In this document: piece by piece, positions 27,438 through 57,560 of the stretch
How the letters are laid out: the number at the start of each line of letters is the position of its first letter
Position numbering within the stretch: the first letter of the stretch is position 1
Assembly: GCA_033977065.1 (NCBI GenBank)
Contig: JAXCHI010000002.1
Coordinates: 26,901 to 90,900 of the forward strand
Origin: Candidatus Algichlamydia australiensis
GTDB lineage: Bacteria > Chlamydiota > Chlamydiia > Chlamydiales > JAJFMI01
Length of the DNA: 64,000 nucleotides
Direction: 5' to 3'
Made by a program: the position numbers and the translations under genes
The notes under the pieces: model-generated
The model's database searches: none
What the model was told of the DNA's origin: nothing
The model's input: only the letters and a program-made list of their open reading frames with translations

Positions 27438-27483
27438 TAGAAATTGCAGTCGGGGCTAAAGCCCCTGCTGCCCCTTCGGCTTC

Positions 27484-27578
27484 ATCTTGCTGTGCCAAAT
27501 AAAATTTCTGCTATTGCGCCGTACGCAGTACTGTCACAACAGCAGAAATTTCATTTTGCTTTGCGATATGAACCCGCG
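27484..27578 (+). repeat. Structured palindromic element, copy A (candidate ncRNA or MITE-like)
   Basis: Long imperfect hairpin (AAATTTCTGCT/AGCAGAAATTT) homologous to 57450-57546. Confidence 0.7.
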
Positions 27579-27636
27579 GTTCCGCTTCGCGCTTTAATCG
27601 TTAGTTTTGTTAGAATGCTCATGCGAGGAGTGATCT

Positions 27637-27879
27637 ATGAGAAAAATTTTATTGATTTTGCCAGTCGTGAGTGCGCTTTGTGTTGCAGAAGCAAAAGTAA
27701 TCTCACATAAAGAACAACTTGCTTTTGAAGCTCCTTGCACAGTTATCTGTCCTGCAAATGTTCCGCATGAATTTTTTAATACAGGAGATGTGCCAACAGA
27801 TGCCATTGCCATCTTAGGAATTGACTCGAAGATCATCGATCAAAACGAAATTGTGATGGAGCTCCCTTGGCGCCATTAA
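27637..27879 (+). CDS. Small putative secreted protein
   Basis: RBS GAGGAG; signal peptide MRKILLILPVVSALCVAEA. Confidence 0.6.
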   Translation: MRKILLILPVVSALCVAEAKVISHKEQLAFEAPCTVICPANVPHEFFNTGDVPTDAIAILGIDSKIIDQNEIVMELPWRH

Positions 27880-57348: not shown

Positions 57349-57449
57349 AATTAAATCTAATTAGACGTGTCTCTAACTATTATAATATTATTAAACGTGA
57401 TTAGATATGATCGGAATAATTTTCCTAGTGATTAGTTTAGTTCGTCTCG

Positions 57450-57560
57450 ATCTCGCTTTGCCAAATCGCTCTTCAGCCGTCGTGCCGTATTACCTATGCT
57501 GTCACACCGGCTGAATTGCGATTTTGCTTTGCGACATGAACCCGTGACGACGCTATCTAG
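57450..57560 (+). repeat. Structured palindromic element, copy B, ending in the terminus of the 54-kb element
   Basis: Homologous to 27484-27578; TGACGACGCTATCTAG at 57545-57560 is identical to 54211-54226. Confidence 0.75.

Follow-up and report, generated by a model that had tools for sequence, protein, structure and literature searches.

The Correia/NEMIS repeats of Neisseria and the ERIC/IRU repeats of enterobacteria are MITEs derived from the ends of insertion sequences (IS). The element described here is like the IS-derived MITEs treated in a 2024 prokaryotic MITE review (PMC10969869) in being a small, ORF-less, imperfect palindrome of 100-150 nt that is intergenic and multi-copy, in varying in presence between species, in being related to the ends of transposase-bearing elements and in giving long hairpins if transcribed. 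It is unlike them in that most copies are single arms with neither an outer terminal repeat nor a detectable target duplication, in that its full-length relatives carry three transposase families, and in that no cognate transposase was found in the host genome. With REPINs, as set out in Bertels and Rainey 2011 (PMC3116915), it shares a hairpin of ~100 nt with conserved flanks and a variable, compensating middle, the lack of target duplication, long persistence, vertical inheritance and a plausible fold in single-stranded DNA. Compensatory stem changes are common in REPINs according to that source, and long hairpin repeats with compensating stems are already a known kind. Unlike in REPINs, however, the halves of the element are not short REP palindromes, there is no RAYT in the host genome or in the genome with the freshest copies (G151), and RAYTs of the order have a different repeat family beside them. 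The same hairpin and tail are found, in conserved blocks, in foldback IS with structured arms (in G151 and at the loci L147/L167 and L149); these are 1.7-2.3 kb long and have both arms as well as outer termini, and those of G151 also have 10-bp duplications, whereas the two copies studied here correspond to one inner module. Our combined findings make it probable that these two copies are members of an old and dispersed family of mobile DNA that is non-autonomous, with arm modules of ~120-150 nt built on an imperfect hairpin core of ~100 nt. The element is most likely an orphan MITE/REPIN-like repeat and not a gene-specific regulatory RNA.

We analyzed a 64,000-nt stretch (the window) of the genome of Candidatus Algichlamydia australiensis (G000; 1.8 Mb, 93.4% complete), together with the genome of a congener (G001) and those of other relatives. 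The initial annotation of the window had described two intergenic segments of ~95 nt, starting at 27484 and 57450, that share a sequence frame and have central stems differing in sequence but still complementary. Both segments are present at these places and are homologous (mean column identity of 81% on alignment), both contain the frame as it had been written, and the central stems do retain complementarity despite their different sequences. The segments are thus real, but their length had been set too short, the unit being ~120 nt and extending over 27475-27592 (copy A) and 57441-57560 (copy B). Their shared 24-nt 3' motif has two occurrences in the window, compared with 0.00 expected (100 shuffles). 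A covariance model built from 15 copies (R1) scores copy A, in which 27484-27578 is included, at 120.8 bits (E = 3.1e-27) and copy B at 100.4 bits (E = 2.6e-22), both on the plus strand, and no third copy was found in the window by an R1 search with filters off.

In the alignment of all copies, the unit begins at its 5' end with TTCG, followed by an outer stem (GGCTCCATCTCGC paired with GCGATATGAACCC) and a conserved 3x3 internal loop (TGC opposite TTT). Inward of this loop come two G-C pairs and a pyrimidine mismatch, AAAT paired with ATTT, a variable inner stem of ~17 pairs and a conserved apical hairpin with a bulged T; the 3' tail ends in ..GCCGCTTCGCGC. Copy A forms a long imperfect hairpin (27477-27576) on either strand, which consists, from the outside in, of the outer stem, the 3x3 internal loop, 2 bp, the pyrimidine mismatch, the variable inner stem and the apical hairpin (27518-27537, with the bulged T). 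It folds better on the minus strand, at -38.2 kcal/mol compared with -26.5 kcal/mol on the plus strand (the latter with a z of -2.98 against shuffled sequence). The tail of copy A (27577-27592, plus strand, ..CCGCTTCGCGC) is kept in most copies and forms a 3-bp mini-hairpin, our helix 3, at which 91.8% of cells are paired. Copy B folds on the plus strand at -39.5 kcal/mol (z of -6.81 against shuffled sequence); its tail has diverged and it lacks the 5' extension of copy A. This extension (27440-27474, plus strand, 35 nt) consists of a small G+C hairpin (GTCGGGGC..GCCCC) and, after it, a C-rich run with TTCG at its end; it begins directly after TA, 2 nt beyond the stop codon of the upstream amidase gene. 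Extensions of this type precede six G000 copies in a pattern search, with a seventh also seen, and are homologous to the outer part of transposon arms in the relative G009, in G151 and at metagenome loci.

The initial annotation had inferred that selection acts on structure, and strong covariation supports this. In a MAFFT alignment of 46 copies that was not fitted to any structure (A4), and for a named structure of 43 pairs, 87.2% of cells pair, compared with 74.6 ± 0.5 in column shuffles; 31 pairs are changed on both sides (19.9 in shuffles), double changes are seen in 251 cells (86.9 ± 7.6 in shuffles), and the covariation score of 0.326, compared with 0.130, was reached by 0/500 shuffles, all being controls that overstate independence as the copies are related by descent. 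Sliding the partners by 1-3 columns lowers pairing to 32-44%. The outer stem, an imperfect inverted repeat of 12 pairs, is formed in 81.9% of cells, and RNAalifold, run unaided, reported compensation at 18 of 21 pairs in A4 and at 19 of 35 pairs in the first 15 copies. At several pairs, three or four pair types are represented in similar numbers (e.g., AU 17, UA 17, UG 3, GC 1), and because this holds despite the kinship of the copies, the inference of a maintained structure stands.

The strand assignment, on the other hand, has to be corrected. Mismatches had been read as G-U pairs on the plus strand, yet across 41 copies and 43 pairs only 23 cells are G.U on this strand and 75 are A.C. Since A.C on the plus strand is G.U on its complement, the wobble pattern favors the minus strand. 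Minus-strand RNA also folds better in 41 of the 46 copies (mean of -46.9 compared with -39.8 kcal/mol on the plus strand; Wilcoxon p of 1e-8), a gap that comes partly from mismatches fixed in all copies and is drawn from 46 values that are not independent. The preference recurs, more weakly, in 9/10 diverged copies from other genomes. By our reasoning, the observed wobble asymmetry is the opposite of what a replication-linked C-to-T bias would produce on the G-rich strand. Both the wobble counts and the folds weaken the proposal that the copies encode a plus-strand noncoding RNA (ncRNA).

A search of this genome and of other Chlamydiae with the covariance model, which had been suggested at the outset, found many further copies, so that the initial count of two is correct for the window but not for the genome. 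In G000, 43 R1 matches correspond to 27 places, the other 16 being reverse-strand reads of the same palindromes, and in G001 there are 65 matches at about 41 places; many of the G001 copies are located at contig ends. Matches in the relatives G009 (eight), G021 (one) and G035 (one) are weaker than those in the two congeners. Altogether, R1 matches are present in 5/41 relatives, and in 4/151 sampled genomes of the order (E up to 1e-4). Among named genome records, the motif is present in 10 contigs of one MAG titled 'Chlamydiae bacterium' and in two stretches of one MAG titled 'uncultured Verrucomicrobiae bacterium', which is G151. Five single motif matches in other named records have no R1 match. 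The initial annotation did not recognize the family, in agreement with a comparison to Rfam that gave no match to the element: Rfam 15 at the gathering threshold returned only tRNA for the window, and a search at E up to 1 of seven copy-bearing loci (from G000, G009, G021 and G035) returned nothing on the element. The sole gathering-level match in the window is a tRNA gene at 30245-30318 (minus strand, 67.6 bits).

Some relatives of the unit fall outside these counts. The palindrome ATCTTGGCATGCCAAAT recurs nine times in G000, outside the window (C2:3447, C2:96095, C3:149538, C3:149946, C3:390763, C3:675338, C4:266770, C4:340071 and C4:453791). The occurrences viewed in context belong to a sister subfamily that folds with a three-way junction and carries the GTCGGGGC extension, and the palindrome forms its 5' arm. 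The family is therefore larger than the 27 R1 places. Two G000 copies (C3:138181-138730 and C3:370861-371300) have the same ~155-nt hairpin insert at the same point of the 5' arm; thus the long variant was itself copied. At C3:505034-506249 (locus L022), two inverted copies, both of a variant that has an additional hairpin on its 3' side, surround a 321-aa ORF without a Pfam family, and at the counterpart of this pair in G001 the copies lie only ~570 nt apart. Other repetition in G000 includes a long, internally repetitive coding region at C2:299-304 kb (76-81% self-identity) and a 4.4-kb duplicate between contigs (C1:47691-52141 and C3:12246-16654, 87%).

All 27 G000 places are intergenic between long ORFs, and none lies inside a long ORF accepted as real. 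Copy A is preceded by an Amidase_3 gene and has an 80-aa ORF with a weak Cupin_2 match downstream; on this small ORF converges a 450-aa ORF (27876-29228, minus strand) with SLFN/AlbA_2, HATPase_c_4 and winged-helix domains. Copy B occupies the spacer from which a 1041-aa ORF (minus strand) and a sulfotransferase-like ORF (plus strand) diverge. Elsewhere in G000, the gene for bacterial RNase P RNA (222 bits; L028:1640-1982 on the minus strand, C3 near 600.2 kb) is convergent with the copy at C3:600103-600221, whose tail is ~20 nt away. ORFs also cross copies A and B, and we rejected coding for a small peptide as, on reading, the stem variation is compensatory and not codon-like.

Both copies were originally placed ~60 nt upstream of plus-strand genes for signal-peptide proteins, and this is true of the two: the ORFs start at 27637 and 57609 and their N-termini are hydrophobic. 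Together with the strong covariation, this arrangement is what would be expected of an ncRNA gene family, or of 5' leaders regulating the downstream signal-peptide genes. The relation fails for the family, however. By our count, a co-oriented ORF start lies within 150 nt downstream in only ~6 of the 27 G000 copies, whereas in 30/48 copies from the two congeners a co-oriented frame (open for at least 60 codons) stops within 40 nt before the 5' end of the unit, in 21 of those within 15 nt. This speaks against a cis-regulatory leader. Moreover, copies A and B contain no promoter-like consensus and the element has no Rfam match, copies have been gained and lost between species, and the module is part of transposon arms in other genomes. 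We consider a family of regulatory or noncoding RNAs very improbable.

Proximity to stop codons raises another explanation, which is compatible with a mobile origin: that the host has taken over the copies as RNA hairpins at mRNA 3' ends, serving as stabilizers or as terminators without a U-tract. Co-oriented stops just before the unit (30/48 copies) are indeed more numerous than converging frames that end within 40 nt of its 3' end (15/48 copies, G000 and G001 combined), the plus-strand RNA hairpins are very stable (mean of -39.8 kcal/mol), and paired changes have occurred between one pair of orthologous copies. Yet no terminator-like site (hairpin and T-run) was found on either strand at copy A or copy B, whose tails lack a T-run, and the wobble pattern favors the strand that such mRNAs would not contain. 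Some G000 copies are, furthermore, antisense to both neighbors or lie in divergent spacers, copy B among them. A host role at mRNA 3' ends therefore seems unlikely as the main explanation.

Comparison of the two congeners indicates that copies come and go. The initial annotation had called for a search for empty sites at orthologous loci, and 10 G001 loci could be placed in G000 by their flanks (70-82% identity). At three of these sites (L034, L049 and L055), filled in G001, G000 is short or empty, with 49-153 nt in place of the G001 copy. The intergenic DNA of the two species is too diverged for base-exact empty sites; L034 offers the only usable boundary, and there the extra DNA of G001 agrees with the limits of the unit. 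Other orthologous sites are filled in both species by different subfamilies, as with copy B and its G001 counterpart L029, or with a tRNA-adjacent site that has a three-way-junction copy in G000 and a long-hairpin copy in G001. Neither genome contains a pair of copies that are more than 92% identical. For all 16 G000 copies in A4 the closest match is within G000, the 16th being a tie at 0.73, and the other 15 reach 0.64-0.91 within G000 and 0.72-0.85 in G001. That G000 copies are nearest to each other, yet without near-identical pairs, indicates that they have multiplied or been homogenized since the species split, but not recently. In one orthologous pair (L022:1746-1860 and L052:1840-1959), paired changes have arisen in place at two pairs; such changes would not be expected of dead relics and count against the reading as orphaned mobile DNA.

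In other genomes, the same module lies next to the termini on both sides of IS, and of their transposase-less foldback derivatives (MITEs with target-site duplications), within inverted arms of 200-350 nt. In the Verrucomicrobiae-labelled G151, 17 R1 matches are found in both arms of foldback units of ~740 nt, of which they form the inner parts, and these units are 94-99.8% identical to one another. Their ends read CAGGG..AAATTAAGAAG (36 such ends compared with 0 in the control), and 10-bp target direct repeats flank six of them: L113, L118, L138, L140, L142 and L141 (9/10 matching). A 1.8-kb member encodes a 363-aa IS701-family transposase (353.5 bits, cut-off of 250); the 740-nt units are deletion derivatives of this IS701-type member, and minimal forms of 166-215 nt are also present. 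At C1:1847649-1848204 of this MAG (L142:50-700), the initial 178 nt of the IS left end are present four times, head to tail, ahead of a full IS701-type copy.

A metagenome scan with a two-block hairpin pattern matched 37 contigs, compared with an estimated ~0.05 expected. Eleven of them have inverted hairpin pairs, spaced 270-440 nt apart in seven contigs and enclosing an ORF of at least 170 aa in the other four. The arms enclose an IS630-family transposase in L147 (191.7 bits, cut-off of 100) and in L167, an IS4-family transposase in L149 (130.8 bits, cut-off of 115) and a 170-aa non-transposase ORF in L158; the two IS630-family genes have clearly diverged. These arms are 213-318 nt long, 93-99% complementary, and the sole long inverted repeats found around those genes. 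Hairpin copies in IS arms score 30-47 bits with R1 (E of 1e-5 to 7e-8) and, by our reading, the conserved blocks of copy B and a G151 copy are identical at 20/20 and 17/17 letters. The termini of the metagenome arms (..GACATGTCGGGG..) resemble the 5' extension of copy A (..GCAGTCGGGGC..).

All four transposase-bearing copies share one geometry, in which the tails face inward; whatever exits through an arm, strand or transcript, therefore has the minus-strand version, the one that folds better. In L147, the arm begins 2 nt after the transposase stop codon. Outer termini (GTCGGGG..) on both sides were found in one G000 unit only, C3:92974-93251, which has 30-nt terminal inverted repeats and TA on both flanks, and an arm unit in G009 likewise has TA on each flank. 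Such TA flanks are what an IS630-type insertion would leave. With filled and empty sites in the congeners and the hairpin in transposon arms elsewhere, a structure-recognized mobile palindrome is the best fitting of the three options originally proposed, the others being an unannotated ncRNA and a cis-regulatory leader. The family keeps its standing as absent from Rfam, but its homology to IS ends removes most of its novelty.

In the host genome, the module stands on its own. We found no match in G000 for Y1_Tnp, RAYT, IS701_2 or an IS630-type protein, in an assembly that is 93.4% complete, such that a transposase could lie in the missing part, and there is no IS-sized multi-copy repeat. Searches for IS701_2 in G001, G009, G021 and G035 and for an IS630-type protein in G001, G009 and G021 were also negative, and G035 has fragments only of the latter. 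The 27 copies, with no near-identical pairs and no arm-associated transposases, are thus orphans. As in a MITE, the unit is short (~120 nt), ORF-less, multi-copy (27 places) and intergenic, and transposase-bearing relatives with the same ends exist in G151, L147, L167 and L149; target-site duplications flank six G151 units and were not found at single arms in G000 and G001. In these two genomes, most copies are single arms, which share a TTCG start and have no outer terminal repeat, and a search at all offsets for direct repeats of 5-10 nt derived from the flanks was, at best, positive for 1 to 5 of 41 copies. The sole recurrent flank signal, TTCG in 20/41 copies, is the element's own sequence.

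We tried and rejected two sources for the copies. A Y1/IS200 transposase as mobilizer has no match in G000, and its presence in relatives does not track the element. Chlamydial IS701-type (12) and IS630-type (10) loci, tried as parents, gave no hairpin with R1 (filters off) except for a single partial match of 16 bits. Integron attC sites, retron ncRNA, IS110 bridge RNA and CRISPR were also set aside, since the copies are dispersed, no such gene is found among the flanking ORFs examined, and loops are conserved while stems vary.

Alternatively, the copies could be REPIN-like, with a single-stranded DNA hairpin cut and pasted by a single-copy RAYT without target duplication. Their form is consistent with this: they are long hairpins that keep their ends, vary with compensation in the middle and lack target duplications, and they show the hairpin doublet with compensatory changes that characterizes REPINs. 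The plus strand of 21/27 G000 copies is on the G-rich replication strand, as judged by GC skew, a bias that is not separable from that of gene orientation. The congener G001, which has the most copies, also has a RAYT (NF047646, 85.7 bits, cut-off of 80), and this gene runs off the end of its contig, as does its downstream flank. No RAYT flanked by the repeat was found. Repeats often cause contig ends. Against this mechanism, G000 has no RAYT or Y1 match, and G151, with at least 17 near-identical copies, has no RAYT on its one sequence, which is recorded as a chromosome. Furthermore, where G001 has its RAYT, G000 has the rest of a longer ORF, and the gene is therefore not a shared old locus. 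RAYTs above 60 bits occur in 9/41 relatives, with the element present in 3/9 of those and in 2/32 of the others. Finally, a different repeat, with the head TTGGAGTGC, borders the RAYT genes of G009, G011 and G022. Taken together, these findings make mobilization by a RAYT doubtful.

The TTGGAGTGC-head repeat (L081, L090 and L091) is a second, separate REPIN-like family, found mostly as inverted pairs ~110-130 nt apart. It has 61 matches in G009, 134 in G011, 55 in G022, eight in G000 and none in G001, with 1-4 in controls. One of its units is nested inside the G000 copy at C4:223089 (minus strand).

Returning to the preferred reading, orphan modules of IS arms, we propose that loops, bulges and pairing are kept because the machinery that mobilizes or regulates the element may need a folded single strand. 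The strand needed would be better formed as the complement of the plus strand of the window, as carried by a strand or transcript exiting the IS via the arm, and variants that keep the fold would be the ones that get copied. The fold may thereby be useful to the element: it could provide the transposase mRNA with a 3' end or an insulator, or be a feature recognized in single strands. Copies may persist mainly just past stop codons as this is where a compact genome would tolerate them, and any effect on neighboring mRNA ends would be a by-product. Three observations do not sit easily with derivation from IS arms: the spread of short single-arm units without target duplication or outer termini is left unexplained, three unrelated transposase families share the arms, making the action of any one of them only putative, and the chlamydial IS701-type and IS630-type loci lack the hairpin.

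The arm may, instead, be an autonomous 'end module', either a structure-recognized landing pad by which different IS are captured or a hitchhiker mobilized in trans. This is suggested by the recurrence of the arm, as the sole inverted repeat, around IS630-, IS4- and IS701-family genes and around non-transposase cargo, and by its recurrence as lone units; lone units are present in transposase-free genomes, and the module is found both in Chlamydiae and in the Verrucomicrobiae-labelled MAG. If so, the fold on the outward-reading strand would be the recognized feature. We regard such autonomy as a minority possibility, less probable than derivation from IS arms. The common TTCG start without duplication or outer termini, the three transposase families and the paired changes between orthologues keep alive the REPIN-like mechanism, the host role at 3' ends and the autonomous module.

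A narrow literature search, judged by title, found no description of such a MITE family in Chlamydiae among the papers listed, and one for IS701 with MITE terms had nothing relevant among its listed matches. Neither 'Chlamydia' nor 'IS701' occurs in the 2024 review (PMC10969869). The family may be undescribed, which a literature search of this breadth does not prove.

Our findings turn an apparent unknown structured RNA into a placeable repeat family, and the covariation seen here cautions that, where a repeat is palindromic, covariation does not prove an RNA gene. Environmental Chlamydiae gain a defined MITE/REPIN-like family, one that breaks assemblies and marks gene ends. Its unusual point is that one structured arm is common to three transposase families; if upheld, this bears on how IS ends are built, exchanged and silenced.
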